Below, piece after piece: positions 1-63,907 of a stretch of 64,000 nucleotides of DNA. The number at the start of each line of letters is the position of its first letter. The first letter of the stretch is position 1. The notes beneath the pieces are model-generated. The model had not been told where the DNA came from and did no database searches. It saw only the letters and a program-made list of their open reading frames with translations. Where the stretch lies: contig JBHLKM010000011.1 of assembly GCA_048886685.1 (NCBI GenBank), forward strand, positions 79,115-143,114, written 5' to 3'. A program made the position numbers and the translations under genes. Source of the stretch: Candidatus Hodarchaeota archaeon. Lineage in GTDB: Archaea > Asgardarchaeota > Lokiarchaeia > Sigyniarchaeales > SOKP01.

Positions 1-715
1 TACGAATTTCATCAAACATCAATAGTGACCCATAATCATTAGCAATTTTTCGAAGACCTTGTAGAAATCCTGAGTCTGGCATCACTACTTTATGACCTCC
101 TGGATGATTAACGGGTGTAGTGATAATAGCTGCTACATCATCACCGTACTTTTTCATCAAATCTTCCACTTGATTAAGGTTGTTAAATTCAAATTCATGC
201 ACATCTTCATATAATTTTTTAGGTATCCCTCCATCAAGTTCATGACCAATAGCCCAATCATGCCATCCATGATATCCACATCGGAGTATTTTAAAACGTT
301 TTGTAAATGCTCGAGCTACTCTGATTCCTGTTGTTGTTGCATCAGAACCAGTTTTGACAAAGACCATCCTTTCACAACATGGAATTAATGATTTCAATTT
401 TTGGGCTAGCTTGTTTTGAACTGGTTGGGTCAATGACATACAAAAACCCTTATCTTTAATTTGTTTAATAACCTCATTATCGATTTCTTCTTCTCTATGT
501 CCAATTATTATTGGTCCATAAGCACAGAGCATATCAATATATTCATTCCCATCAACATCAATAACCTTTCCACCCTTCGCATTCTCAAAAAAAATAGGAT
601 ATTCACCTTCTACAAAATTACTCGGGCGTCTTATTCCCAAAATTGCTCCCGGTATTAATTCAAGTGCTTCTTCATAAAGTTTAAAAGTATTTTTTAAAGG
701 TAATTTTTTAGACAT
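1..715 (-). CDS. Class III PLP aminotransferase (glutamate-1-semialdehyde aminomutase-like); 3' end runs off the window
   Basis: Manual translation from ATG 715: MSKKLPLK...YPIFFENAKGGKVIDVDGNEYIDMLCAYGPIIIGH...FVKTGSDAT...GYHGWHD...LLMFDEIR. Not in the ORF track. Confidence 0.9.
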   Translation of the reverse strand, partial: MSKKLPLKNTFKLYEEALELIPGAILGIRRPSNFVEGEYPIFFENAKGGKVIDVDGNEYIDMLCAYGPIIIGHREEEIDNEVIKQIKDKGFCMSLTQPVQNKLAQKLKSLIPCCERMVFVKTGSDATTTGIRVARAFTKRFKILRCGYHGWHDWAIGHELDGGIPKKLYEDVHEFEFNNLNQVEDLMKKYGDDVAAIITTPVNHPGGHKVVMPDSGFLQGLRKIANDYGSLLMFDEIR

Positions 716-955
716 TTTATCATCCTCAAGTATAGAATAATAACAATAAATTATATGACATTATTATTGAAGATTCTTAAAAAGAAATGTCTTACAATAA
801 TGATTCTTATAATTCACAAAGTTTTAATGATTTTTACCTTCTTAAAACAAATAGTTCTTCCAAGAGGATTATAAATAATAACAGTACTATTTTAGTTTGT
901 TTATTATTTTAGAATCAATGGATAAAATTAAATTAAAGAATGGGTGATGTTGAAA

Positions 956-1123
956 ATGGGAGAAAAATTAATTTGTTCGATTTGTGGGAGGGAACAAAAG
1001 GTTCCGAAATGCTGTGAAAAATCTATGATAATCAAAAATGGTTATCTATTATGTTGCTGCTCAGAAGAATGTGGATATCAACCTATTCCTGAATGTTGTG
1101 GAAAAACAATGGTATATACATAA
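956..1123 (+). CDS. 55-aa Cys-rich mini-protein with two desulforedoxin-like metal-binding repeats
   Basis: MGEKLICSICGREQKVPKCCEKSMIIKNGYLLCCCSEECGYQPIPECCGKTMVYT; GGTGA RBS at 943-947; alternative in-frame ATG at 947; below the ORF-track size cutoff. Confidence 0.8.
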   Translation: MGEKLICSICGREQKVPKCCEKSMIIKNGYLLCCCSEECGYQPIPECCGKTMVYT

Positions 1124-1165
1124 ATTCAAAAGTATATAATAAAGAAATATAAAAAAATAATAATC

Positions 1166-2746
1166 TTACCAAATTAAGTTAGAGATCATATCTTTCGAAG
1201 CTTCGGCTTCTTTTTTATTCAATATCTTTCGAATCCTTAGATCGTTAATAGCATCTTCCAAACGAGTATCAAGATTTTTCATTTCCATTAAATTATTTTT
1301 ATCGCCCTGAGTTTCTACTAAATCTATCATGGTATTATCTTTGTTCATTAAATCTCTAAGCTTCTGTCGAAAACTGGACTTAACCTTCGTCCTTACTACT
1401 TTTCCTTTATCAATTAAAATTGGTAATATAGGAGCTCTTTCAGTGGTTCTATTTGTATTAGGGTCCATAAAGTAAAAGATGTAAATTGGTATTCCTACTA
1501 CTATATTTTGTGTTTTTAACTCAAGAGAATAATTATTAAAAAAAGTCTGAACATTTGTCATTTCTGTATCTCTGACTGCTTCAATATTATTTAATGATGA
1601 TTGTTTTTCAGTTTTGATTTGAGTTACGATGTCTTCTGCTGAAGTTAAATCTTTACTTAGTCCCGAATGTTTCGCTTCAATTTGCCTTTCCACTTCAGTT
1701 TTTTTACGTTCTAATTCTCTTATCTTTTGCTGTTTTGTCTTCTCTAGGTCAGATATTTCTCTTTGAACATTTTTCCTTAATTGGGCAATTTCATTTTTAT
1801 AACGCGCAATTGAATTCCCTAAATCTTTAAATTTTATATCAATATCTTTTAAAGATTCTTCTGCTAAAAAAAGATCTCTCTGATTTAATGCATTTCTCAT
1901 ACTATCAACACTACCTTTAAGAGCACTAATATTGTTGTGTAATTCTCCGGTTTTATCATTAATTTTATATTTACCACTCTTTACCAATTCTTCCGGAGTT
2001 TTTTCTATTTCTCGTTCTTTTTCTGCTTGAATTTCTTTATTGAGTACTGCTAATTGTTTCTCTTCTTCACCTGTATCTACTTTCGTATCTCTAATTTTAT
2101 CTGCTTCTTTACCTCCCTTTTCAACCCATCTTTCACATAATTTAGTTATACTATCTCCAAATGTCGCAAGAAGTTGAACATCCTTTTGAGCCAAATACTC
2201 GGGGATATCAGGTATAATTCTTGTTTGATTTACACTTTTTGTAATTGGTCCACCTTCGAGTATAAAATAAGGAGAACCATGGGTGCTTAAATTATATTGA
2301 TTAAGGAAAAAATTTTGAAAATAACCGACTTCACTTGTATTAAATAAAGCCTCTTGAATTACAATACCTCTTTTGAAGTTTTTAGACTTTCTAAGGTAGG
2401 TACTATTATATTGTCTTAAAGAATTGAGGAAACTTTCAGGATCTGCTCCTTTAATAATAGCTTCTGGTCTTGGAGGCATTTGTGCAAATTTTCCTACATT
2501 TAGCTTTTCTTGTTTATTATAAAGATAACTCATAACACAAGCTCTAGTATCAGATAATGGAACTAAGCGTACTGGCCAAAAGGCGGTTGAAATTTTTGAA
2601 ATTCTCCCTAATTTTTTAAGATTTTTCCCATAAATCCCTAAACATTCTCTCAAAGCCATCGCTAATTCATTTAATACCGCAGCTTGACTCCGTGCAGGAG
2701 TTATCTGACCCACATCAATTAAAAAAGGTACGACTGTATCAACCAT
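1166..2746 (-). CDS. Hypothetical protein with globular termini and a long central coiled coil
   Basis: 526-aa ORF; E/K/Q/L-rich heptad region at about aa 190-400; no Walker A motif. Confidence 0.8.
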   Translation of the reverse strand: MVDTVVPFLIDVGQITPARSQAAVLNELAMALRECLGIYGKNLKKLGRISKISTAFWPVRLVPLSDTRACVMSYLYNKQEKLNVGKFAQMPPRPEAIIKGADPESFLNSLRQYNSTYLRKSKNFKRGIVIQEALFNTSEVGYFQNFFLNQYNLSTHGSPYFILEGGPITKSVNQTRIIPDIPEYLAQKDVQLLATFGDSITKLCERWVEKGGKEADKIRDTKVDTGEEEKQLAVLNKEIQAEKEREIEKTPEELVKSGKYKINDKTGELHNNISALKGSVDSMRNALNQRDLFLAEESLKDIDIKFKDLGNSIARYKNEIAQLRKNVQREISDLEKTKQQKIRELERKKTEVERQIEAKHSGLSKDLTSAEDIVTQIKTEKQSSLNNIEAVRDTEMTNVQTFFNNYSLELKTQNIVVGIPIYIFYFMDPNTNRTTERAPILPILIDKGKVVRTKVKSSFRQKLRDLMNKDNTMIDLVETQGDKNNLMEMKNLDTRLEDAINDLRIRKILNKKEAEASKDMISNLIW

Positions 2747-2820
2747 ATTTGATTCACTTGATATTTCTATATTATTTTTTAATTACGTTTTAATAATTAA
2801 AGTTTTGGATTTAACACTAT

Positions 2821-3096
2821 TCAATACTTTATCCTCCTTCTATGGATACCCCTGGATTTGAAATAGAGAACAAGACTAAACCTGAAGAATGTCGGATAAT
2901 GGAAGCAAGAGGAGGACTTGAAACACCCGAAGATGTTGCTGAAGTCTTTATACATGGTATATTAAAAAATAAATTTAATATTTTACCGGGAGAGGCTAAA
3001 TTCATCTGACAAATAAATCATCATTTTCCAAAAATCATTAGATCTTGGTCAGATAGAAGCTATAAAAAGGCAACAAAAAGACTAGGAAAAGTATAA
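2821..3096 (+). pseudogene. C-terminal relic of a KDSR/Tsc10-like short-chain dehydrogenase
   Basis: Translates to SILYPPSMDTPGFEIENKTKPEECRIM...TPEDVAEVFIHGI...FI*QINHHFPKII..., with an internal TGA at 3007-3009; the N-terminal Rossmann fold and catalytic YxxxK are absent. Confidence 0.7.
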
Positions 3097-3243
3097 TAAT
3101 CTAATGATTTTTTGTTAATTTTAAAAAATGAATTGGATCATATTACCTTAAAATGATAATTCTTAAAAAGCAAGATTTTATAGTTAAACATCTAATTTTA
3201 TATCTATAATACAAAAAATTGTTATATATTGGTGTAAAAATTA

Positions 3244-5037
3244 ATGGTTAATGTAAATGGAGCCCAGTTAGTTGTTCGCGCTTTGGATAATCAAGGTGTT
3301 AGAGTTTTGTTTACTCTCTGTGGAGACAATCGTATAATATATCATTATTGTCAGGATTCCTCATGTACTGAGAAAGGAATAGACATTATTGACTTTCGTC
3401 ATGAACAAGCAACAGGTCATGCTGCTATGGGATATTTTCTTTCTACAGGGGAAGTTGGTGTATGTTCGGTTCAATCAGGTCCGGGAATAACAGATCTATT
3501 CCCTTCAATTCCAATAGCTTTTGATGCTAGTATTCCTCTTGTAGCTATTTGCACAAGTACAGCTTTAATGGATTTTGAAAAATTAGCTCAAAATGAAATC
3601 GATGTTGTGCCTTCCTTTCGACCTGTAACAAAATGGAGTGGATACTGTTATGAAACTGCTCGAATTCCAGAGTATATTAACATGGCTTTTAGAATAGCCA
3701 CTACTGGTCGACCTGGTCCAGTCCTTTTACTTATTCCTTTTGATATCCTAGTAAAAGAATGTGATGCTGAGTTGGATATAGTTCAATATGCATTTAAGCC
3801 TGTAGAGAAGCTACGGTCGTTTTATGGCCCATATGGTAATGAACATCTGATAAGGAAAGCAATTGATTTACTTTTGAAGGCAAAAAATCCATTAATAATA
3901 GCAGGTACTGGAGCAGCTTTTTCAGATGCTTCATTAGAATTACTTAAATTTGCTGAATTGACACAAATTCCTGTTGGATCTTGGGGTTTTGGCTTAGGGG
4001 AATTTCCAGCTGATCATCCTTTATTTTTCGGACTTGCAAGTCCTTTAGATGGTCCAGGAACAGCCTTACTCCAAAAGGTTGATGTAGCATTGATACTGGG
4101 TTCAAGAATTACCGAGTTAATGAATTATGGATATATGCCTTATTTTTCGGATGATGCAAATCTTATTCAAGTGGATATTAAAGCTGAAGAAATTGGTAGA
4201 AATCGAGCAATAGATATACCTATTGTAGGGGATGTTAAAGGTGTTCTTACTCAATTCATCAAAATTAGTAGTGAAAAATTGAAAAATCCTAGAACTGAGA
4301 CACAATGGGTCAAAATAGTTCAAGACTATTTGAAAAAATTTGAAATGCGTCTTGAGAAAGATGGATCTTCAGATAAGATTCCAATTCTGCCCCAGCGCCT
4401 TGTAAAGGAAGTTCGGGATTTTATGCCTGAGGATGGAATAATTATTTTAGATGGGGGAGATACGACAGTTTGGGGGCTTACCTACTTAAGAGGTCGTTCA
4501 CCTAAATCACTCTACTTTTCTGGGGGATTGGGAATTCAACATCTTGGTGGTGGTGTTCCCATGGCTATTGCTACTAAATATGTAAATCCTGATAAGAAAA
4601 TTCTAGTCTTAACCGGAGATGGATCGTTTTTATTTAATGGAAAAGAAATAGAAACTGCCCGAAGGTTTGATTTACCTTTTGTAGTGGTGATAAGTAATGA
4701 TAGGCTGTGGGGAATGGTAGCTAGAGGCCAAAAAATGTCTCACGGCAAAAAATTTTTTGGTTTAGGAAGTTCTTTAAGTAGTGATACCAGATATGATAAA
4801 TATGCAGAAGCTTTTAATTGTTATGGGGAATTAGTGACGGATCCCAAGGAAATTCGTCCTGCATTACAACGGGCTTTTGGTTCGAATCTTCCTGCAGTAA
4901 TCGATGTAAGAATAAATCCTAAAGTAAATACGGTAATGAACTATCTAGCTAAAGAAAGCTATAATCCAGATAGTTGGGAACGTAAAGTTAAAAAAAAAAT
5001 CGAAGAAGTCATTGAAATAGCACCAGTTAAAAAGTAA
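3244..5037 (+). CDS. Thiamine-diphosphate-dependent enzyme (acetolactate synthase / 2-hydroxyacyl-CoA lyase family)
   Basis: RHEQ catalytic Glu, SGPG, GRPGPV and GDGS...ND ThDP-binding motif. Confidence 0.9.
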   Translation: MVNVNGAQLVVRALDNQGVRVLFTLCGDNRIIYHYCQDSSCTEKGIDIIDFRHEQATGHAAMGYFLSTGEVGVCSVQSGPGITDLFPSIPIAFDASIPLVAICTSTALMDFEKLAQNEIDVVPSFRPVTKWSGYCYETARIPEYINMAFRIATTGRPGPVLLLIPFDILVKECDAELDIVQYAFKPVEKLRSFYGPYGNEHLIRKAIDLLLKAKNPLIIAGTGAAFSDASLELLKFAELTQIPVGSWGFGLGEFPADHPLFFGLASPLDGPGTALLQKVDVALILGSRITELMNYGYMPYFSDDANLIQVDIKAEEIGRNRAIDIPIVGDVKGVLTQFIKISSEKLKNPRTETQWVKIVQDYLKKFEMRLEKDGSSDKIPILPQRLVKEVRDFMPEDGIIILDGGDTTVWGLTYLRGRSPKSLYFSGGLGIQHLGGGVPMAIATKYVNPDKKILVLTGDGSFLFNGKEIETARRFDLPFVVVISNDRLWGMVARGQKMSHGKKFFGLGSSLSSDTRYDKYAEAFNCYGELVTDPKEIRPALQRAFGSNLPAVIDVRINPKVNTVMNYLAKESYNPDSWERKVKKKIEEVIEIAPVKK

Positions 5038-5076
5038 AATTTCAACTAAATAAAAACTTAAAAAAATCTTATATTT

Positions 5077-6183
5077 ATGAAAAGAATAGGGTTGATAATT
5101 AATCCCATAGCTGGAATGGGGGGAAGTGTTGGTCTTAAAGGGACGGATGGGGATATCTATCAGAAAGCAGTAAAAATGGGGGCTAAACCTATAACTCCAA
5201 AAAGAGTGAGTGAGTTATTATCCCATATAACACGCAAAAGAGAGATATTTATGTTGGTAGCACCAGGTAGGATGGGTGCGGATGTTATTATAGATAAAGG
5301 TATTGAATTTGAAGTAATTGGGGAAATTGATGAAATTACATCAGCGGAAGATACAAAAAGAATAGCTAAACAGATGGTTAAGACAGGGATTGATCTACTG
5401 ATTTTTTGTGGCGGGGATGGAACCGCGAGAGATATTTATGATGCAATTGGATTAGAAAAACCAGTAGTTGCTGTGCCTGGAGGAGTAAAAATGTACAGTT
5501 CTGTTTTCTCCTTTAACCCTAGAACAGCAGCTCAAATAATTGACGGTTTTCTAGGTGATTTTATTCAAACTGAAGATAGAGAGATATTAGACATTGATGA
5601 GAACCTTATAAGAAAAGATATGTTAATATCGACTCTATATGGCTATTTAAAAGTTCTTAAATTTAGAAATTTAGTCCAAGCAGGAAAAATTGGTTCAAGA
5701 TTTGGAAGAACAGTTGAGGAAAATAAACAAGAAATTGCTCGATTCATAGTTGAGAGTATGGAAGATAACATCTTATACTTATTAGGTCCTGGAACAACAG
5801 TAAAAGCAATCACCGATGATTTAAAACTTCCAAAAACACTACTTGGGGTTGATGCGGTTTACAATAAAAAAGTATTGGGCAGTGATTTAAATGAAAACGG
5901 GATACTTAACTTATTGGGCACCTATTCTAAAGTTGAGATTATCATATCTCCTATTGGTGGCCAGGGATTTATATTTGGGAGAGGTAATAAGCAATTTACT
6001 CCTAAAATTCTTAAACAAGTTGGGAGTAAGAACATTAAAATTGTATCAACGGTAGAAAAGATTCGAGAACTTGATTGTTTGAGAGTTGATACAGGCAATA
6101 TCGGTGTTGATAATAATCTTAAGGGATTTGCAAAAGTTATCATCGGATATATGGAAGAAACAGTTATCCCTGTTGAATGCTAA
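5077..6183 (+). CDS. ATP-NAD kinase / AcoX-like family protein
   Basis: NPIAGMGG..GLKGTD, GGDGTARD, GVKMYS, IGGQGFIFGRGN. Confidence 0.88.
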   Translation: MKRIGLIINPIAGMGGSVGLKGTDGDIYQKAVKMGAKPITPKRVSELLSHITRKREIFMLVAPGRMGADVIIDKGIEFEVIGEIDEITSAEDTKRIAKQMVKTGIDLLIFCGGDGTARDIYDAIGLEKPVVAVPGGVKMYSSVFSFNPRTAAQIIDGFLGDFIQTEDREILDIDENLIRKDMLISTLYGYLKVLKFRNLVQAGKIGSRFGRTVEENKQEIARFIVESMEDNILYLLGPGTTVKAITDDLKLPKTLLGVDAVYNKKVLGSDLNENGILNLLGTYSKVEIIISPIGGQGFIFGRGNKQFTPKILKQVGSKNIKIVSTVEKIRELDCLRVDTGNIGVDNNLKGFAKVIIGYMEETVIPVEC

Positions 6184-6249
6184 TTTGATTGAGAAAAGAT
6201 ATAATTAAAAATTTTATAATTCTAATAATTAAGATTTTGTTACCATTTT

Positions 6250-6576
6250 CTATTTAGGAGGAGTCATCCCAATCACAGGAAGTGATTCCATTATTGACAA
6301 GTAGGTTTTAGAAGTCATCGATGAGCCTTCAATTTTTTTCGCAAGTTCTAGATAAAGCTTACTTAACTCAATTGATGCCTCAATAAATGTACCAGTCACC
6401 TCCCAGATCGTTGTAGCTACAGATCCATCTTCAGTGCTCATTAAACCAACTATCCTTTTTGCGGGTTTTCCTTCACGATAAAGATTAGAAAACTTATTCA
6501 TTACTTCAAAAAAAGCTTTTCCTGCATCTTCTGCTCTAATAGCAGGAAACCTAGTTGTTATTACAATATATACCAT
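6250..6576 (-). CDS. Small hypothetical protein
   Basis: 108-aa ORF with AGGTGA RBS just upstream; alternating beta/alpha pattern. Confidence 0.7.
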   Translation of the reverse strand: MVYIVITTRFPAIRAEDAGKAFFEVMNKFSNLYREGKPAKRIVGLMSTEDGSVATTIWEVTGTFIEASIELSKLYLELAKKIEGSSMTSKTYLSIMESLPVIGMTPPK

Positions 6577-6836
6577 TTATTTCACCTTATTTTGATTTGA
6601 TAATTGAATTTCCAAAAATTCAAATTATCATTATACAAACTTGTATAAAAAGTTTATCTATTTTTTTATTTAATCCTAAAAAGGATAGTATTGCTTTTTC
6701 AATATAAAAAATATTTTTAAAAATGAATCATAATTTAATAGATCATTACTTATATGAAATATACTACTTATCTCTGTTATTTTATCTATTTGGTAATTAG
6801 GGACACAGCTGATAAAAAAAGAGGTTTTAAGATATA

Positions 6837-7955
6837 TTGCTAAAAAGTGAAGTTATCAAAAAAGCATTAGAGTCAGGTTTTGAAGATATTGGGTTTACAA
6901 CCATGGAACCCTTTGAGTCTCAAAAAGAGATTTTAGATTCTAGAAAAGAAGAATATGGATGGACTTTAAAAAAAGGTATTGAACTCATAAAAGGTTTAGA
7001 TCCTAGAAATATATTGCATAATGGTAAATCTATTATAGTTTTGATTGATGTTTATTTTAAGGAAGCTTATCCATCTTCTTTAGAAGGTCATTTTGGTCGT
7101 TGTTATCTAGATGATGATCGAATTACCAGAGGTCAGTTATACCAGCGCATCAAATCATTCCGAAGTTACTTACGAGATAATGGGATTGATTCCAGAGCAC
7201 CATTTAATATTCCACATCGATTAACAGCTGCGAGAGCGGGATTGGGCACTTTTGGAAAGAATAATTTTCTCTATTCAAATAGAATTGCTCGAAAAAGTTC
7301 TTGGATATCTCCCATACCCTTAATAGTCGATTATGAATTCGAGCCTGATGAGCCTTCAATAGAAGTTGGGTGCCCAAAATGGTGTAAAAATACTTGTATT
7401 GCTTCTTGTCCCACTGGTGCTCTCAGAGCTCCAAACAACATTGATCCTCGAAAATGTATATCTTATCTCAGTTATTATCAAGAAGGAATAACTCCTTTAG
7501 AGATTCGGGAGCAGATGGGTACCTGGGTGTATGGATGTGACCGATGTCAGGAGGTATGTCCTCGTAATAGAATGTGGTTATCACAAGATTTACCTCCTAA
7601 TGAAAGAGTGATAGCTAAAATGAATGATTTTGATTTATCTAACTTACTTCATATGGATCAAAAAACTTATCAAACAAAAATTTGGCCACATATGTTCTAT
7701 ATGTCCTTTGAAGAAATATGGCGTTGGAAAATGAACGTTGCAAGAGCTATGGGAAACACACTTGATCCTAAATATATTCCTGATTTAATTAGAGCTTTCG
7801 AAGAAAACGAAGACAAGAGGATAAAAGGTATGATTGCCTGGGCTTTGGGACGAATAGGAGGAAAAGAATCTAGAAATGCTTTAGAACGCTTTAGAAGCAA
7901 TAATAACGGTTCAGTTAAAAACGAAATTGAACTTGCTTTAAGGGATTTAGCTTAA
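6837..7955 (+). CDS. Epoxyqueuosine reductase (QueG)-like cobalamin/2x[4Fe-4S] protein with C-terminal HEAT repeats
   Basis: AARAGLGTFGKN, C...C..CIASCPTGAL, CISYLS, YGCDRCQEVCPRN, NVARAMGN, AWALGRIGG. Confidence 0.85.
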   Translation: MLKSEVIKKALESGFEDIGFTTMEPFESQKEILDSRKEEYGWTLKKGIELIKGLDPRNILHNGKSIIVLIDVYFKEAYPSSLEGHFGRCYLDDDRITRGQLYQRIKSFRSYLRDNGIDSRAPFNIPHRLTAARAGLGTFGKNNFLYSNRIARKSSWISPIPLIVDYEFEPDEPSIEVGCPKWCKNTCIASCPTGALRAPNNIDPRKCISYLSYYQEGITPLEIREQMGTWVYGCDRCQEVCPRNRMWLSQDLPPNERVIAKMNDFDLSNLLHMDQKTYQTKIWPHMFYMSFEEIWRWKMNVARAMGNTLDPKYIPDLIRAFEENEDKRIKGMIAWALGRIGGKESRNALERFRSNNNGSVKNEIELALRDLA

Positions 7956-54362: not shown

Positions 54363-56636
54363 TCATAGCAATTTTTTGAATAATCTAATTGTAAAGGTAG
54401 AACCTTTGAATCGTCCTTCAGATTCAACAATTATTCGCCCACCATGTAATTCCACAATTTCTTTTGCGATGTACAGCCCAAGACCTGAACCTTCTATATC
54501 AACGTCTAAATCTTTCCCATACCGTTCTATTTTTCCAAATTTTTCAAATAATTTCAATTTTTCTTTTTCCGTCAGTCCTATTCCAGTATCTCTTATATGA
54601 ATATCAACATAATCCGGATTCTCGCCCAGAGTTATAAAAATCCTCCCTTCTTTTGCTGTATTTTTAATTGCATTTGATATAATATTAGAAAGAACCTGCC
54701 TGAATCTTAATTTATCTATATCTAAATACAATTGCTCTGGAAGTTCTAAAATTATTTTTAGTTGACGATTAGTAGCTAGATATTTCATATCTTTCACACA
54801 ATCAATTATAATTTCTATGAGGTTTTCATTTTGAAGTTTTAAATCTAATTTCTTTGCATCCAACCTTGAAACATCTAATAAATTCTCTATTAATTGTTTC
54901 ATTCTTATGCTACCTCGGAATCCAATTTCAATGTACTTTTGGGCGTTTTTTCCAATCTCTTCTAAATAGAGTTGAGTAAGGATTTGATTTGCACCATAAA
55001 TGGAGGTCATAGGAGTTTTCAACTCATGAGAAACTCTTATAATAAGATCTTTTCTCAATTCTTGGAGCTCTAATAATCTTCTATTCTCTTCAATAATGAG
55101 TTTTTCAGCATCTTTTTTGTCAGTGATATCGGTGAATATTATAGCAAAAAATCCTTTTTCTGGAGAATATCCAGAAACTTTATACCAACGATCAAGGGCT
55201 TCTGAATAATCTTCAACTGTTAAAGGAATACCTGTGAGCCCCACATTACCAAATTTACCTACCCAATCCGCAGGATCATTCTCTGTTCCAGGAATTGCTA
55301 CTGTTACTCTCTTCCCAATTAAATCTTCTTTTTTTAATCCGGTCAACTTTTCAAAGGCGGGATTCACTTCTATATATTCATAATCAATTGGTTTGTTATT
55401 ATCATCTGTAATTACTTTATGATAAGCAAATCCGGCATTCATGTTCTCGAACAAAGAACGGTATTTTTCTTCGGATTCTTTTAATTCCTTTTCCGATTTT
55501 CTTCTTTCAGTTATATCATCAACGTGCATTAATACTAAATCAGGAGGAATATAAGCAAACTGTATTGAAAGATCTCTCTCTTCTTCTAAAACATTAACAT
55601 AATATTTTAACTCTCGAGTTATATTGATTTTATCATTAAAGCAACGATGTAAGTCTTTGAGAATATCAGGGCGGTTTTGGAAGAAAATGGATCCCAAAAC
55701 TTTCAAATATCTTTTTATATCATCTAAAGAATATTCTTCTAAAGCTTTGTTATAATCAATAAGTAGAAAGTCGTCTTCAACTTTTTGCCAGGTCAAAGTG
55801 GGTACAGGACTTCCCATAAAAAGAGCTTTGAATTTTTCTTCTGATTCTCTTAGTTTTTCCTCAGCTAATTTTTTCTCAGTAATATCATTTATTATTACTT
55901 GAATGAAACTTTCATTTCCTGTCTTAAATTTAGAGCTTTGCCAGTTAAGCCAAATTTTCCTTTCTTTTTTTGTAATAAGGAAAAATTCAATAGGATCTAA
56001 ATCCATTCCTTCACGAAACGCTTTAAATCGTTCATTAAAAAGCCGTATAAGTTGTTCTTTGTTTTTAAAATATGAAATTATCTCAAGAAAATTCTTTTCA
56101 GAGAAGTCTTCTGTAGCATATTCTGATAATTTTTTAAGAAGAGCTTTATTAGATTCAATTAAATTTCCTTTATTATCGAATATTAAGATACCAAATGGAG
56201 ACTCCTTAAACAAGTGTCTATATTTTTCTTCTGATTCTCTTAATTTCAGTTCTACCTTCTTGAATTCAGTAACATCATGACCAATCCCTAATATCGCGTA
56301 AATCTCTCCATTTTTTTTCAATGGAATTGTATTAATTTCGATATATATAAGATCTCCGTTTTTCTTTTTAACTTTATACATTCTAGGTTCTTTTACTTTT
56401 CCTGTCTGAACCGTTTCCGCCATTAAATCTTGGATTTCAACAACATTTTCTTCAATCGATAAAAAATCTATAGCATTCAGGGAAAGTATTTCTTCTTTAG
56501 AATATCCAAGTTTTTTAATTACAACATCATTAACATCAATGATATTTCCTGCTTTATCATGAAGATATATATAGCTATATGAATTTTCAAATATTTCTTC
56601 AAGATGATTATTATATTCCTGAATTATACTCATCAA
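54363..56636 (-). CDS. Cytoplasmic multi-PAS sensor histidine kinase
   Basis: Four PAS/PAC repeats ending in DVTE/DITE/DITD and joined by ESEEKY/F linkers; SHELKTP (H box), NAIK, DTGIG, GSGLGL. Confidence 0.95.
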   Translation of the reverse strand: MMSIIQEYNNHLEEIFENSYSYIYLHDKAGNIIDVNDVVIKKLGYSKEEILSLNAIDFLSIEENVVEIQDLMAETVQTGKVKEPRMYKVKKKNGDLIYIEINTIPLKKNGEIYAILGIGHDVTEFKKVELKLRESEEKYRHLFKESPFGILIFDNKGNLIESNKALLKKLSEYATEDFSEKNFLEIISYFKNKEQLIRLFNERFKAFREGMDLDPIEFFLITKKERKIWLNWQSSKFKTGNESFIQVIINDITEKKLAEEKLRESEEKFKALFMGSPVPTLTWQKVEDDFLLIDYNKALEEYSLDDIKRYLKVLGSIFFQNRPDILKDLHRCFNDKINITRELKYYVNVLEEERDLSIQFAYIPPDLVLMHVDDITERRKSEKELKESEEKYRSLFENMNAGFAYHKVITDDNNKPIDYEYIEVNPAFEKLTGLKKEDLIGKRVTVAIPGTENDPADWVGKFGNVGLTGIPLTVEDYSEALDRWYKVSGYSPEKGFFAIIFTDITDKKDAEKLIIEENRRLLELQELRKDLIIRVSHELKTPMTSIYGANQILTQLYLEEIGKNAQKYIEIGFRGSIRMKQLIENLLDVSRLDAKKLDLKLQNENLIEIIIDCVKDMKYLATNRQLKIILELPEQLYLDIDKLRFRQVLSNIISNAIKNTAKEGRIFITLGENPDYVDIHIRDTGIGLTEKEKLKLFEKFGKIERYGKDLDVDIEGSGLGLYIAKEIVELHGGRIIVESEGRFKGSTFTIRLFKKLL

Positions 56637-57075: not shown

Positions 57076-60000
57076 ATGAAGAAATTTCAAAAAATTTCAA
57101 TAATATTAATTGGATTCGCGATTATACCAAGTATTTTGTGCATTGGAGCGTTAAATGGGAACAATGTAAGCGAAAACTCGAATTTTAATAGTAATCATTT
57201 AAATATCTCTGAGGAACCCTTCCTCTTATTACAAGAATTTGGAGCGTCAACCTACTATATTTCTCCTGAAGCTTCTCCTGGCTCTAATGATGAAGTTTTT
57301 TTTTCCTTTATGACCAATAAAGATGGAAATTTTTCAATCTCAGTAAATAATTATCCAAGCGAGCTCACGAGTACAATAGAATTAGAAGATGATGTAGCTT
57401 TTGATAATCCTAGTGGAACAAATCTCTGGTATCTTTCTTATTTAGAACTAGATATAGAATTTGAGGGTCTTACTATCAATAGAATAGGGAATTATTCAAT
57501 AAAATTACTTATAAGCGATGATAAAGGAGGAACTTGGGAAAGGAAAACAATAGCAGAATTTATTCCCTCAGGTATGAATTTTGCAGAGTTATTCCGGGAC
57601 TTAGCTGGTTTAGGTCTCTCCGCGTATCCTGAAATGGGTTTGATAGGTGCGGTTTCATGGTATAATTATTCTGATTTAGTTTTTGTAGGGTCATTAGACA
57701 ATGGTACAACATGGGGTACACCGAAAACAATCATTAAGGCTGGAGATATTGGAGCAGATTTCTTTTTTAATCCTTTCCAAGGATTCTATCCCTTACTTGA
57801 AATTTGCATATTGAAAAATTCATCGATCTATGTGTTGACACAAGCTAATTCTCCAAGCTATACTCCAATAGTGTATTTCCGGAGTGATGATAACGGTATT
57901 ACCTGGAGTATCCCTAAAAATGTTACGGTCTCTCGTGGGGATAATTTAAGAAAAATTAAGATGCAGGTGGATTATGAAACTGGGGATTTTTGGTTCATGT
58001 GGATGTACACCAATGATACAATTGATTATCAAATAGAATGGAGTGAATTTAATAGATTGAATAACGAGACTTTATATTCAAATGTTCCAGTGAATATAAT
58101 ATATAATGGAAAAGATTGCAATTTTGACTTTCTTTATGATGGGCAGGGATCGATTTTCAGAATGATTCGCGTTCATCCTATTGGTAGTTACCCTTTTGAA
58201 AACTTTGAAGTATTCAATTTTACCTGTACTAGTTTTGGGAGTTCTTGGGATAACACATCACTTGGTTATCATGATGTTTTAGATAATCATTATGCTTCTG
58301 TGTTCACTTTAAATTTTGCATTTGATGGGAATGAATTTCAATTATTTTATGAAGCTTCTTATACAGGATTTACCGAACTTTATCAATATTATGTACGGAA
58401 GAATCCAATTTTTTGGGAAATTAATGGATTTTTCATAAAAGATGAACCTATTCAGATACATTGGAATGGTCGCAAATATATTACAGAGCAAATAACTATT
58501 TCGACAGTAAGGGTAGAATTTACCGCGCAAAACAATACAGATACAATTTCACGCACTAAATACATTACCATAGATAATGACACACCTTATTATGAAGAAT
58601 ACATTCAAAAAAAGCATTATTTTAATCCTCTTTCTGGTGATATCACGTTTACAGAAGTAGAATGGGATTTACTTGCTTCAGAAGAATGCACTGCTTTTTT
58701 GGAAATCTTCAAACAAGGTTCAAGCCTTAGTGATTGGCAAAAAGTAACTAATAATAATTTGCATGAATTAGATCCGAAAATATTTAGATCAAATACAGGT
58801 GAATTATATATACTCTATCACTCAGTTGAATTGGGTACAAAAATTGTATATTTAATTAAATCACATGATAATGGGATTACTTGGTCAAGCCCGGTAGAAA
58901 TTACAAGAATTACAAGCAAAAGTTCAGATTTTAGATATGAAGGAGCAGCATGGGGACCTGTAGTAATAATCTATTTACGAGATGTGGATTCAGGTGAAGA
59001 TTTATTTTATAGAAGTTTTGTTGGGGGAGAATTCTTTGAACCACCAATTCCGATGATGAATTTAGTAATAAATGATAAGGTTGAAAAATTAAAAATATCG
59101 AATAATGGAACTCTATTTCTCTTGTATAGAAATTACCCTGCCTTATATACGGTCTTAAAGTCAGCTGATTTAGGGTTTAATTGGGACGTTTCAGCTCAAT
59201 GGACTGATTATCCACCAAATTTTACTGCAGTTTATGATTTAAAGGCTGATATGGCATACGATTATGAGAATGATTTATTACACGTCGTTTTACCCTATTT
59301 AAATTATACTCGTGTTGCTAATTACTCAGTTGCAACATTAGATGTATCAACTAGCACTTGGAGAGAACCCAGAGGTACTGGAACAATTTATCCTATGGGT
59401 ACATACAGTAGAGAACCTAAATTATTAATTACCAGAGATTCAGATCCTCCCTTCATAAAATTGAAAATATTATACATACACGATCAACAAACTATGGGGA
59501 CTTGGACAAATTATACCCTCAAGGAAATAGTTTCAAATGATTTAGGGGCAACTTGGTCTGGTCCATATCTAGTAGAAAATTCAAATAATGCCACTATTTT
59601 CACATCAAGTATCTTTGATACCTTTTACGTAACCCAGAAATCTGATGGGAATGATTATGAAGTATATTTCAGTCGTGAAGGAAGTTTAATACGCACTAAA
59701 AAAGAAACTCTCTCTTCGGCATCTCATACTGATATTAGTTTTGATGGAATTGATGATTTTGGAGCCTATATCTCAGAGGGAAATTATTCTTATAATCTTC
59801 ACCTTAGAGATGATGCAGGGAATTTTATTAATACTCAAGGATGGTTTTTTGCGGACTATAATGCGCCAGAAATATCAGAACCAATAGTTAATTGGACGTT
59901 CACTCCAACACCGCGTCTTGACGTAGAAGTAACTGCAGATATAACTGATGGTATAGGATTTTCTGCTTTTATATATTATAAAAGAGATTTGGGAACCTGG

Positions 60001-61662
60001 ATCACTATTCCAATGGAAAATATTGGTGGAGATACTTATTTAGCTGTAATTCCACATGATAATACTACAAATATGATCCAATACTATATAAAAGCTGTAG
60101 ATCTTGCAGGGAATGCTTTTTATCGGGATAGAGGTAGCCTATATTACACTTATGATATGCCTAGATATGAATGGGAGAGTCTTGGTCTTTTTAATGAAAC
60201 AACAAGCTACTCTTCATCACAGAATTATGAAATCTCGATAACTATTACAACTGATCTTGAATATGTCCAAAGCCTTATTTTTCGCTATTCCTATGACGGG
60301 GGCACTACATGGTACGAGTTAGAATTGTTACCAAATAGTCCTGAATTTATTGGGATTTTAGAAGATATTCCAGAAGATACACAGATCTTAATGTATGAAT
60401 TACTTTTAAATGATATTTTCGGTGAGCAGGTTACCCTTTATGAAACTCAACAAATTTCATTCTTCCCTGAAATCCCCAGTTTTACAATTACTGGCCCACA
60501 ATCAATTATTGTAATTACGATTGCAGCAGTTGTAGGCTTTCTTGTCGCTTTTGGATATATTAAACTAAAAAGTAAGAGTCATGAAGTGATTTATAAACAA
60601 ATTTTTCTTAGAGAATATGCAAAAAAATCAGTTAAAATAGAAAAAAACGCGGATACACCGAAAAAAAAGCATATAAAGATAGGGAAAAAAAAAGGAGTCT
60701 CTGATGAAAAAGGAGTACTCTTAGAGAAATCCGTGGGAGCATCACCATTCACTATAGCATATTTAGGGATATTATCGATAACTCTGGCAGTTTTCTTTCT
60801 CGGATATAACTTCGCAGAAGTTAATCCCCAGGGGGGAGTTCTGCTCCTCGCAGCAAGTCTAGTTCTCAGCATTTTTGGTTATATGATTCTTATTAGTAGA
60901 GATATTAGTCTTAATATTTATTTAGAGAAGATATTTAAGCGAAATATCATGCTAGAATTTTTCCAGATAGGTTTTATGCTGCTTAATATCATTATAATCT
61001 TATTTAAAGGATATGAGATTGCCTGGTTTCGCTACTATTTGATAGAACAAACGTATGATCTTGGTACAGTTTCTATACCTAAATTATATATTTCAGTTTT
61101 TGGCGTTTTCTTTACTTCACTGGTACTTGTAATGATAACCACTTACCTCCAATTAAGAAAAACTGTTAAAAATGTCCAAGCTCAACGCTCTCAAGGTGCT
61201 TCAGATAATCTACTTCTATATATAAAAGACCAAAATTCTTCACGACTAATAACCCAAATGGGGTATAAAACAATAGCATTTATGGTAACAGTACTGATCG
61301 GTATCGTTTCAACCACTAACTTACTAACTGCGGAAACTGGAATGGCTCTTTTAGTTGTAATAATTCCATTTATTATAGCTGGTTTTTCAGCTCTAATTGT
61401 ACATCGTATAATGGAAAGAAAAAGCCAAAAAGAAAAGATAGAAGATATTGAATTACCATTCATAGATTCTAGAAAAGAATGTAATAATTGTGGGAAATCA
61501 ATATATCTATCAAATAAATATTGTGGTTCATGTGGGAATCAAGTGATTTATGCAGAAAATGTTGGGATTTATACTTCAAAATGTCCCATATGTGATGGAT
61601 ATATATATGAAGAGGCAGAATTTTGCCCTACCTGTGGTACAGAGGTAAAAAAACAAGCATAA
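57076..61662 (+). CDS. Large membrane protein: signal peptide, Asp-box (BNR/sialidase-like) and Ig/FlgD-like ectodomain, seven TM helices, C-terminal double zinc ribbon
   Basis: SxDxGxxW repeats (SDDKGGTW, SLDNGTTW, SDDNGITW, SHDNGITW, SADLGFNW, SNDLGATW, SYDGGTTW); 7 hydrophobic segments at about 60505-61401; CNNC-CGSC-CPIC-CPTC. Confidence 0.85.
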   Translation: MKKFQKISIILIGFAIIPSILCIGALNGNNVSENSNFNSNHLNISEEPFLLLQEFGASTYYISPEASPGSNDEVFFSFMTNKDGNFSISVNNYPSELTSTIELEDDVAFDNPSGTNLWYLSYLELDIEFEGLTINRIGNYSIKLLISDDKGGTWERKTIAEFIPSGMNFAELFRDLAGLGLSAYPEMGLIGAVSWYNYSDLVFVGSLDNGTTWGTPKTIIKAGDIGADFFFNPFQGFYPLLEICILKNSSIYVLTQANSPSYTPIVYFRSDDNGITWSIPKNVTVSRGDNLRKIKMQVDYETGDFWFMWMYTNDTIDYQIEWSEFNRLNNETLYSNVPVNIIYNGKDCNFDFLYDGQGSIFRMIRVHPIGSYPFENFEVFNFTCTSFGSSWDNTSLGYHDVLDNHYASVFTLNFAFDGNEFQLFYEASYTGFTELYQYYVRKNPIFWEINGFFIKDEPIQIHWNGRKYITEQITISTVRVEFTAQNNTDTISRTKYITIDNDTPYYEEYIQKKHYFNPLSGDITFTEVEWDLLASEECTAFLEIFKQGSSLSDWQKVTNNNLHELDPKIFRSNTGELYILYHSVELGTKIVYLIKSHDNGITWSSPVEITRITSKSSDFRYEGAAWGPVVIIYLRDVDSGEDLFYRSFVGGEFFEPPIPMMNLVINDKVEKLKISNNGTLFLLYRNYPALYTVLKSADLGFNWDVSAQWTDYPPNFTAVYDLKADMAYDYENDLLHVVLPYLNYTRVANYSVATLDVSTSTWREPRGTGTIYPMGTYSREPKLLITRDSDPPFIKLKILYIHDQQTMGTWTNYTLKEIVSNDLGATWSGPYLVENSNNATIFTSSIFDTFYVTQKSDGNDYEVYFSREGSLIRTKKETLSSASHTDISFDGIDDFGAYISEGNYSYNLHLRDDAGNFINTQGWFFADYNAPEISEPIVNWTFTPTPRLDVEVTADITDGIGFSAFIYYKRDLGTWITIPMENIGGDTYLAVIPHDNTTNMIQYYIKAVDLAGNAFYRDRGSLYYTYDMPRYEWESLGLFNETTSYSSSQNYEISITITTDLEYVQSLIFRYSYDGGTTWYELELLPNSPEFIGILEDIPEDTQILMYELLLNDIFGEQVTLYETQQISFFPEIPSFTITGPQSIIVITIAAVVGFLVAFGYIKLKSKSHEVIYKQIFLREYAKKSVKIEKNADTPKKKHIKIGKKKGVSDEKGVLLEKSVGASPFTIAYLGILSITLAVFFLGYNFAEVNPQGGVLLLAASLVLSIFGYMILISRDISLNIYLEKIFKRNIMLEFFQIGFMLLNIIIILFKGYEIAWFRYYLIEQTYDLGTVSIPKLYISVFGVFFTSLVLVMITTYLQLRKTVKNVQAQRSQGASDNLLLYIKDQNSSRLITQMGYKTIAFMVTVLIGIVSTTNLLTAETGMALLVVIIPFIIAGFSALIVHRIMERKSQKEKIEDIELPFIDSRKECNNCGKSIYLSNKYCGSCGNQVIYAENVGIYTSKCPICDGYIYEEAEFCPTCGTEVKKQA

Positions 61663-61837: not shown

Positions 61838-63226
61838 ATGTCAATGCATCTTTTAGAAAAAGAAATAGTGCAAAACAATATTTTCTTTGTAATTCCTAGT
61901 TGGGGTGATTTACTAGGTTTCCCTACTTTAGGAAATTATGCTAATCATAATATTTCAAAAATTTCCCAAGATCTTGTCATTTTTTTAGCTAGTAGTGAAT
62001 GCGCTATATCTACAGAAAGAGGTACACTTTACTTCTTATTTGGGTTAGGATATTATTATATAAAATTCGAATTAGAATCTGGAAGATATATTACAGACCA
62101 TCGTCAACTCACAGGATTAGTTTTGCCTGATTTTGTCTATGATCACTTAGCAACATCAAAAAATATTACTTTAGAAAATGATCGAGATGTTATCATAGGG
62201 GAAAAATTATTCAAATTACCAATAGATATGTCATCCAAATCAGAAAATAAAATTACCTTTATACAAGGAACTTTGATGAGAAACCTTTTCATCCCATATA
62301 AAGACATCTTCTTAGAATTTATGGAAACCATACGCGATCATAAATCTTTTCAATTAAATAGAACTGGACATTTGTTGTTAAGTACTCATTGGTATTTCTA
62401 CAACAAAATATTGATCTCAGGAAATATGGAATATGAACCTAAAACGGAGTATTTAAAACCTACCGCGGGGTTATTCGGAATTAGTTTTGGATCAGATAAA
62501 GTCTTAAATGAGTATTTCACAATATCCGAATTGAAGGAGATTGACGATTCTATTATAAAATTAAAAATCCTCTATTCTTCTATTGATTATGATCCTATGT
62601 TTCTCTTTTCAATTATAGAAAATGCAGCCCCTTTATTAAGGGCACCTAAACCATTTTCTTTTAATCTTGAGGATGATCGAATGCATAAAAAAATGCCAAA
62701 GGAATCAATTTTTATCTCTGCTGAAAGGCGAATGAATTCTTTTAAAGATTGGCCTGTTGAATTTAAAAGACAAACAAGGGAACAATTAGAAAGCAGTAAT
62801 ATCCAAGAAAAATCAAGACTTTATCAACCTGATAAAAAAGAAATGCTTGAAAAACCGAAAGTTATAAAATTTCATAAAAGGGAAGAAGAATTTGAACTTA
62901 GGACAATGAAGAGACCTTTTATAGAAATTAAACCTCTTCCATACATACCACATGAAAATGCCTTAGAAATTCTTTTAACGTTAAAGAAGATTGTTGAAGG
63001 AAATTATGATATACGTACAATTGGAAAAGCTTTTAATATAGCACGAAATAACATCAAAAAGAAAGTACTTCACGAAAACTATTTGTGGGATCTGAGCAAA
63101 TATGCAAATATTTATGAACGAACAGAACCTAATATAGGATTGAGTTTAAAAGAAAAGACTGAACTTCTTGAAGAAATTGATAAATGGGTTAAAACTTCAG
63201 TAGATCATTCTGATAAATTGATATAA
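61838..63226 (+). CDS. Hypothetical protein (globular N-domain, charged linker, C-terminal helical bundle)
   Basis: 462-aa ORF; no recognisable catalytic motif; ends 21 bp before the profilin gene. Confidence 0.75.
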   Translation: MSMHLLEKEIVQNNIFFVIPSWGDLLGFPTLGNYANHNISKISQDLVIFLASSECAISTERGTLYFLFGLGYYYIKFELESGRYITDHRQLTGLVLPDFVYDHLATSKNITLENDRDVIIGEKLFKLPIDMSSKSENKITFIQGTLMRNLFIPYKDIFLEFMETIRDHKSFQLNRTGHLLLSTHWYFYNKILISGNMEYEPKTEYLKPTAGLFGISFGSDKVLNEYFTISELKEIDDSIIKLKILYSSIDYDPMFLFSIIENAAPLLRAPKPFSFNLEDDRMHKKMPKESIFISAERRMNSFKDWPVEFKRQTREQLESSNIQEKSRLYQPDKKEMLEKPKVIKFHKREEEFELRTMKRPFIEIKPLPYIPHENALEILLTLKKIVEGNYDIRTIGKAFNIARNNIKKKVLHENYLWDLSKYANIYERTEPNIGLSLKEKTELLEEIDKWVKTSVDHSDKLI

Positions 63227-63247: not shown

Positions 63248-63907
63248 ATGGTAAATATTAAATCAATCGTTGATAGATTGCAGAAACATTATCCTGATGC
63301 TTCCCAAGTTGCAGTTGTTAATAGAGCTGGAAAAGTTTTACATTCTAGTGGTAAATGGGATGTTAAGAGGGATATAAATGGAGTTCTCGATAACTGGACT
63401 AGTGGAAATGCCCAATTTGTCACTCTTGATGGTATTAGATACTCAATTCTACAAATGGAACCTGAACGATTTATCGCAACTAATCGAAAGAATGAAGGTC
63501 ATCTAATCGGCGCGTCATCACCGGATGGAAATACACTTTTTATTGCCCATATTAGACCAAAAGCAAAAGGATGGTTCCATATGGCATATCCCGCTGTTGC
63601 TAGAGCTGCTGCTATGATGAAAAAGAAATCAGATTCAACATTTATGGGAACAAAAGTCGATTTATCAGGTGTTAGTGAGACAAATGTAGTAGGAGCTCCA
63701 ACAGGATATACTTCTTCTAATTTTCAAGTACAACAACCGTCAGTTGATCCTTCTCTTAAATCTGAAATTGAAGGTTTTTTACAATGGATTAATAATCCTC
63801 AAGGATTAGCTGGCTATATTGCTTATGCTTTACAGCAAAATAATAATAAACAAATCTCTAGACTCGCTGAGTTTTATAATGAATTTTATCATATTTTCTA
63901 CGATTAA
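63248..63907 (+). CDS. Asgard-type profilin with an approximately 95-aa C-terminal extension
   Basis: aa 1-124 VAVVNRAGKVLHSSGKWDV..DI...FVTLDGIRYSILQMEPERFIATN.KNEGHLIG...FIAHI follow the Asgard profilin pattern; then an S/T/G/Q-rich linker and an amphipathic helical domain. Confidence 0.82.
   Translation: MVNIKSIVDRLQKHYPDASQVAVVNRAGKVLHSSGKWDVKRDINGVLDNWTSGNAQFVTLDGIRYSILQMEPERFIATNRKNEGHLIGASSPDGNTLFIAHIRPKAKGWFHMAYPAVARAAAMMKKKSDSTFMGTKVDLSGVSETNVVGAPTGYTSSNFQVQQPSVDPSLKSEIEGFLQWINNPQGLAGYIAYALQQNNNKQISRLAEFYNEFYHIFYD

Follow-up and report, generated by a model that had tools for sequence, protein, structure and literature searches.

We describe a gene found in a stretch of 64,000 nucleotides (nt) of Asgard archaeal DNA, from Candidatus Hodarchaeota archaeon (contig JBHLKM010000011.1), which we call the window. 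The open reading frame (ORF) at 57076-61662 (+) encodes a protein of 1528 amino acids (aa), labelled P0001, which we regard, with a probability of roughly 55%, as a modular Asgard cell-surface receptor or adhesin made of two functional chains that are fused here. The unit of this protein family is not a domain of seven transmembrane (TM) helices: it is a single-pass ectodomain chain plus a chain carrying six TM helices and a zinc ribbon. Since the ORF is intact and the same architecture is shared by 27 homologs at 37-79% identity, which bear the label Promethearchaeota where they are named, the gene is real and conserved across relatives.

The two chains are found as separate genes in nature. 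In at least five Lokiarchaeia-type loci (L041, L042, L043, L081 and L083), the break lies in the loop between TM1 and TM2, and a gene for the ectodomain and TM1 is followed by a gene for the six helices and the double zinc ribbon (6TM+DZR); these loci represent two unrelated clades. In L043, a 941-aa gene with a signal peptide, a different head, the stalk, TM1 and a basic tail is separated by only 1 nt from a 345-aa 6TM+DZR gene, and L041 has a split of the same type. L083 contains two ectodomain+TM1 genes (942 and 1006 aa, 60% identical) before a single 6TM+DZR gene, with 1-nt gaps. In L081, which has an Asp-box head, and in L042, the break falls in this same loop and the two genes overlap by ATGA. 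L082 has a 6TM+DZR gene whose immediate upstream neighbour is not an ectodomain gene. The hypothesis that the two split groups form one clade was rejected by an approximately unbiased (AU) test (p 3e-37), the group having been named after the first tree was seen. Inheritance and duplication make it certain that the first split group is real; frameshift errors could be among the second one. That fission recurs at one loop, and that one membrane gene can have two heads, points to a chain for recognition distinct from the membrane chain.

Some related observations were made on the same loci. In L083, where the two ectodomain+TM1 genes and the 6TM+DZR gene together span 149-7320, the tail of the latter is extended by a helix-hairpin-helix domain (HHH_5). 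The apparent split of L084 was set aside since it contains an N gap, those of P0044, P0050, P0099, P0133 and P0140 are probably contig-edge fragments, and an apparent fusion of an ArsR helix-turn-helix domain to a family member (L073:1216-5649) is an N-gap artefact.

P0001 had previously been examined from its sequence in a preliminary description, and most of the layout proposed there was confirmed. The hydropathy profile displays a signal peptide at aa 7-25 and then exactly seven peaks (1144, 1225, 1255, 1291, 1337, 1399 and 1424), which coincide with the segments quoted in that description and are covered by seven long helices in an AlphaFold 2 (AF2) model; the number of TM helices is thus seven. 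For the signal peptide and the Asp-box ectodomain, hydropathy, motif scan and Pfam agree with what had been proposed. BNR_2, BNR and DZR matched above the Pfam cut-off, FlgD_ig matched weakly (E 0.046, aa 866-908), and a scan against NCBIfam gave zero matches. The four CxxC motifs announced for the tail form the DZR match, and all eight cysteines of this zinc ribbon show no or almost no variation among 28 close homologs. The protein has 24 N-glycosylation sequons, where 12.9±3.2 would be expected (p 0.0005). Four cysteines lie in the ectodomain, and none is present between aa 538 and 1469.

The membrane module is shared well beyond the close homologs, as emerged from the search for proteins having the seven helices in common that the preliminary description had suggested. 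A HMMER search gave 256 matches, of which the best 150 were considered, these being in part zinc-ribbon-only matches, and two rounds of profile search converged on a module present in 91-93 of the 398 Asgard genomes. A profile of the C-terminal part recovers proteins of ~1550-2500 aa from other Asgard families, which it matches only over TM2-TM7 (E 1e-14 to 1e-27); they possess a signal peptide, FG-GAP propellers, immunoglobulin (Ig) stalks and the same seven helices without the zinc ribbon. The heads are exchanged between members: they are of Asp-box, FG-GAP or other types, and most members outside Lokiarchaeia carry non-Asp-box heads. Among the carriers are 56 genomes of a family clustering with a Thorarchaeota-labelled protein and Njordarchaeum guaymaensis, and divergent copies occur in three further families; in the window's own genus only 2 of 51 genomes have the module. 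All members with a zinc ribbon fall in one clade of 100 rows (Shimodaira-Hasegawa-like approximate likelihood ratio test 99), where the ribbon is kept in every full-length member except one that is tailless and one that is cut off. Many non-Loki members have almost no cytoplasmic tail. A profile search among proteins of 138-580 aa returned only Lokiarchaeia-type fragments, this search being word-limited, so that non-Asgard homologs are possible.

The Asp-box branch and the giant FG-GAP/Ig surface proteins of Asgard archaea thus have the same membrane module and the same junction between Ig stalk and TM1, whereas the Asp-box branch differs by its heads, its double zinc ribbon, its own clade and its split two-gene forms. 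What is new here is that the two branches are linked, that the zinc-ribbon members form a clade and that two-gene forms exist in nature. We also noticed tandem paralogs in L055 (2668-12527) and in L070, and four copies in genome G021. One member, P0119, comes from a 4.4-kb contig labelled Candidatus Latescibacterota; it is placed among Asgard sequences in the tree and is therefore probably mis-binned. In an open frame of 13,906 codons (G373:C23, L077), the module profile gave a weak internal match (E 8e-7), which was lost when a broader profile was used, and this giant protein is probably unrelated to the family.

Across the family, conservation is stronger in the membrane module (median 64%) than in the ectodomain (median 42%). 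The AF2 model of this part has a predicted local distance difference test score (pLDDT) of 85.8 and a predicted template modelling score (pTM) of 0.81, an earlier model built from 28 close sequences being mediocre (pLDDT 70). In the better model, TM3-TM6 would form an up-down four-helix core, with an outer interfacial helix (G-x-x-I-x-W-F) and then a beta-hairpin ending in I-P between TM4 and TM5. TM3, TM5 and TM6 are predicted to reach into the cytoplasm and to carry there R1275/D1276 (at the end of TM3), K1384 and K1398 (on TM6) and F1402; P1431 lies in TM7. The conserved charged residues sit on these cytoplasmic extensions, and across classes no conserved charged residue was found inside the membrane core. 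The spacing from TM1 to TM2 varies from ~37 to 104 aa in the family, and this loop, partly disordered, is the least confident part of the model. The N-out/C-in orientation proposed from the positive-inside rule holds across 134 relatives: the mean number of Lys and Arg on the inner side is 3.2 behind TM1, 3.9 between TM3 and TM4, 8.6 between TM5 and TM6 and 3.9 for the tail, whereas the outer segments have means of 0.2, 0.2, 1.7 and 0.3. A mean-field coevolution analysis of 134 sequences was dominated by noise.

With the AF2 model (pLDDT 85.8), no significant match was found in the PDB by Foldseek, in the VIA wide and VIA second-look searches or among viral structures, which does not by itself prove a new fold; searches with the pLDDT 70 model, Atlas included, were also empty (Atlas TM-score ≤0.25). 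No Pfam family matches the module, and among solved folds it resembles only generic four-helix bundles, with scores in the generic range for helical bundles and 4-12% identity. Two sequence hits, TRAP-gamma (E 0.002) and SLC30A4 (E 0.0003), were ascribed to hydrophobic composition, as neither showed up again with another alignment or in the structure searches. Feature searches of the Atlas yielded nothing usable. A literature search retrieved no description of the family. A receptor-like layout is of a known kind; the module that carries it is undescribed.

The module could in principle serve as a channel or small-solute transporter gated by the ectodomain, for instance for the uptake of products of surface-bound or surface-hydrolysed polysaccharides. 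The score against M1-M4 of Cys-loop receptors is below that of designed four-helix bundles and within the generic range, and the element preceding TM3 is TM2 and not a ligand domain as in the Cys-loop layout. In addition, no transporter family was consistently matched by the 134 members, the membrane core is free of conserved charges and the heads are exchanged for unrelated folds, which makes this explanation improbable. No known transporter fold, which the preliminary description had named as a possible refutation, was matched. The module also differs from the TorS/NarQ sensor domains, Cys-loop M1-M4 and cytochrome b561, as it lacks a kinase, a HAMP domain, a Cys-loop ectodomain and the conserved heme His.

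The preliminary description had likened the protein to adhesion G-protein-coupled receptors (GPCRs), with the caution that topology does not establish homology. This caution was justified. Like the eukaryotic adhesion GPCRs (class B2; latrophilins, GPR56/ADGRG1), the Asgard protein has a signal peptide, a large glycosylated adhesive ectodomain, seven helices in N-out/C-in orientation and long cytoplasmic TM5-TM6. Further likenesses are the R-D pair with which TM3 ends in the cytoplasm, the TM4-TM5 hairpin on the outer side and a Pro in TM7, and GPCRs fill the non-significant part of the Foldseek list (E ≥0.22). Yet GPCR chains superpose only at a root-mean-square deviation of 11-16 Å (TM-score ≤0.25); the likeness is thus restricted to helix count and layout, and no GPCR relation is detectable by fold comparison. 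No GAIN domain or GPCR proteolysis site (GPS) was matched by Pfam at E ≤1, and the lack of Cys over aa 538-1469 leaves no Cys-containing GPS before TM1; likewise, the disulfide between TM3 and extracellular loop 2 is lacking, the TM module having no Cys. Pfam 7tm_1/2/3 gave no match for P0001, nor are they among the 25 families most matched by the 134 members, and for heterotrimeric G-alpha (PF00503) the genome has only partial matches below the cut-off. The Asgard module is furthermore of a 1+6 type, split after TM1 in nature, and ends in a zinc ribbon. A very remote homolog or precursor of the eukaryotic GPCRs of the adhesion class is therefore largely refuted and, in our estimation, most improbable. 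As for other seven-helix receptors, the retinal-binding Lys of microbial rhodopsins and heliorhodopsins is absent from TM7 in P0001 and in the family profile. Pfam 7TMR-DISM_7TM has no match in P0001 at E ≤1 and the tail is a zinc ribbon only, a comparison made at the level of sequence that leaves room for remote kinship. In a preprint (bioRxiv 10.64898/2026.10.28.762692), '7TM proteins' of Asgard archaea and a cluster of class C GPCRs are mentioned in text without sequences; the fold test on our model argues against a kinship of the module with them. In the search for eukaryotic signatures, an Asgard N-out seven-helix protein with an adhesive ectodomain thus need not be a GPCR.

The ectodomain contains seven Asp-box motifs (shuffle mean 0.02), namely two clusters of three and a look-alike at aa 1072 inside a stalk Ig domain. 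Two clusters, each with a FlgD/Ig segment, had been noted before; the clusters stand, and the description can be refined: the segments aa 50-505 and 506-932 align as homologs from end to end (HHalign 99.8%, E 1e-27) and, at the level of sequence, the head is a duplicated unit, with the FlgD_ig match itself being weak. As judged from the consensus, each unit is probably a FlgD-type Ig domain in which a propeller is inserted, and that of unit 1 probably has six blades. The two stalk domains, of ~100 aa each, are related to one another, and P0024 (1940 aa) and P0025 (1635 aa) are lengthened by extra copies of the last one.

These propellers raise the question of a membrane-anchored glycoside hydrolase (GH), sialidase-, GH74- or GH93-like, with an accessory membrane domain. 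The ectodomain profile matches sialidases (GH33) and xyloglucanases (GH74) with E 1e-16 to 1e-5, and four acidic propeller residues (D351, D355, E585 and D729) are conserved among close homologs. The matches, however, span only Asp-box stretches of 60-250 aa. The (F/Y)RIP motif is absent from P0001, with one look-alike among 40 sequences, and no Arg is conserved at ≥80% across the 40 homologs; R646 and R867, conserved in the 26 close ones, occupy Asp-box or linker positions. The invariant positions are the S/G/W of the Asp-boxes and Ig-core residues, and most members outside Lokiarchaeia have other heads. The check for sialidase catalytic residues called for earlier revealed, at the level of sequence, no sialidase catalytic set; a sialidase is unlikely and the propellers are probably non-catalytic. 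Given the few acidic residues that close homologs keep in the propellers, some other hydrolase activity is conceivable. A hydrolase as the function of the whole protein appears very improbable. Vps10/sortilin also has Asp-box repeats, in a ten-bladed ring as opposed to two propellers of ~330 aa; the Asgard protein has no Cys-rich 10CC and no Sortilin-Vps10 Pfam match, and its propellers, unlike those of all these relatives, are apparently inserted in FlgD-type Ig domains.

We propose that the receptor works as follows. Chain A would be exported and N-glycosylated; its head, variable and ligand-binding, consists here of two Asp-box propellers and is carried by an Ig stalk, with TM1 as the anchor. 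Chain B would be the conserved six-helix module, whose TM3, TM5 and TM6 would project inward as a charged helical bundle, terminated in Lokiarchaeia by the double zinc ribbon. The head would bind a glycan or a cell surface while TM1 docks onto the six helices; binding or pull on the head would then move TM1 relative to the bundle, which would alter the cytoplasmic face (R/D at the TM3 end, K1384/K1398 on TM6) and the zinc ribbon, and these would recruit an intracellular partner. From the undescribed Asgard surface receptor for glycans or partner cells postulated earlier, the surface protein and the receptor-like layout stand; that it binds glycans or partner cells and signals, we infer.

Several points weigh against this two-chain receptor. 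No output domain of known signalling activity is present, the zinc ribbon is confined to the Lokiarchaeia-type clade, and no conserved neighbouring transducer, GTPase or cytoskeletal gene was found among the examined loci. The packing of TM1 is a prediction whose one measure is the pTM, the ectodomain layout is read from sequence alone, the group in the AU test was chosen with a tree in view and each of the overlap-type splits, L042 and L081, could be a frameshift error. The protein might instead be a structural adhesin or envelope protein, the six helices being a robust anchor, an assembly factor or a cytoskeleton tether that gives no ligand-triggered signal. The giant glycosylated Ig/propeller ectodomains with expandable stalks, the lack of a catalytic output domain and the nearly tailless non-Loki members would fit such a role. 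However, in split forms TM1 by itself anchors the ectodomain, the conserved charges are on cytoplasmic extensions and the zinc ribbon is almost always kept in its clade; we hold this second role to be rather unlikely, albeit the most plausible of the alternatives.

More tentatively, the two-chain receptor might represent a heteromeric class specific to Asgard archaea, in which interchangeable single-pass chains (Asp-box, FG-GAP or other) plug via TM1 into a constant six-helix transducer of undescribed fold, which would pass on cell contact or the binding of glycans to machinery inside the cell, such as small GTPases, the cytoskeleton or the ubiquitin system. If true, this would be a pre-eukaryotic adhesion-signalling system that reached an adhesion-GPCR-like layout independently. 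In the heteromeric receptors RAMP-CLR and TCR-CD3, a single-pass chain is in charge of recognition and another chain is multi-pass or does the signalling. The likeness, suggested by L083, is one of logic only, an exchangeable single-pass binding chain with a constant membrane partner; there is no sequence or fold relation and the Asgard complex is putative. How Asgard cells recognise partner cells and relay this inward is a question of eukaryogenesis for which few candidate receptors are known. The family offers a concrete one, with an orphan membrane module in about a quarter of the sampled Asgard genomes (most of those in the Thorarchaeota-containing family, together with Njordarchaeum and some Lokiarchaeia). 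The boundary between the subunits is marked by the two-gene forms found in nature, which also supply small constructs for structure and interaction work. The features of P0001 are listed in Table 1.

Table 1. Features of the P0001 gene, with positions in the window
Feature	Position	Strand	Remarks
Whole gene	57076..61662	+	1528 aa; 27 homologs, 37-79% identity, mostly full length
Signal peptide (predicted), aa 1-25	57076..57150	+	basic N-terminus, hydrophobic stretch aa 7-25
Head unit 1 (aa ~50-505): probable FlgD-type Ig with inserted Asp-box beta-propeller (~aa 95-445)	57223..58590	+	Asp-boxes 147, 206, 270
Head unit 2 (aa ~506-932): probable FlgD-type Ig with inserted Asp-box propeller (~aa 550-870)	58591..59871	+	Pfam BNR_2 E 1.8e-11; Asp-boxes 596, 696, 820
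Two stalk Ig-like domains (aa ~933-1030, ~1031-1132)	59872..60471	+	mutual homology, HHalign 97.4%
TM1 (aa 1144-1162), anchor of the ectodomain chain	60505..60561	+	conserved P..S-x3-G-x6-Y pattern; closes upstream gene in split relatives
Basic cytoplasmic TM1-TM2 loop (aa 1163-1223), natural fission point	60562..60744	+	lowest model pLDDT; length variable
Six-helix module TM2-TM7 (aa 1225-1442)	60748..61401	+	AF2 model, conservation, fold searches
Cytoplasmic double zinc ribbon, four CxxC (aa 1469-1520)	61480..61635	+	Pfam DZR above cut-off

In the window, the receptor gene is an accessory gene outside any conserved operon, and among the family loci examined the neighbouring genes are not conserved. 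It is followed by genes of 462 aa (61838-63226, +) and 219 aa (63248-63907, +), neither of which has a Pfam match. The 462-aa gene is present in 102 of the 131 genomes of the family and has a longer paralog of ~650 aa; the 219-aa gene is next to it in nearly all fetched loci. A conserved 'surface-to-actin operon' comprising these two genes was considered and rejected, the receptor being directly upstream in only 2 of 30 loci; in G344, a major facilitator superfamily gene directly abuts the 462-aa gene. On the other side, a PAS-rich histidine kinase (54363-56636, -) is divergent from the receptor; a PAS/GAF protein is upstream in L053 too and is absent from this place in other loci. A Ras/Rab-like small GTPase gene (L043:934-1491) is convergent with the split pair, and small GTPases lie within 5-7 kb in L059 and L060 as well, their position not being fixed. 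A Cdc48 gene is located 1-7 kb from the family gene in L055, L056, L058 and L059 (three related Lokiarchaeia loci and one of FG-GAP type), a proximity that may reflect local synteny or chance. Finally, the window encodes a protein of 1931 aa (19305-25100, -) with a weak Big_1 Ig match, which is probably another large surface protein.

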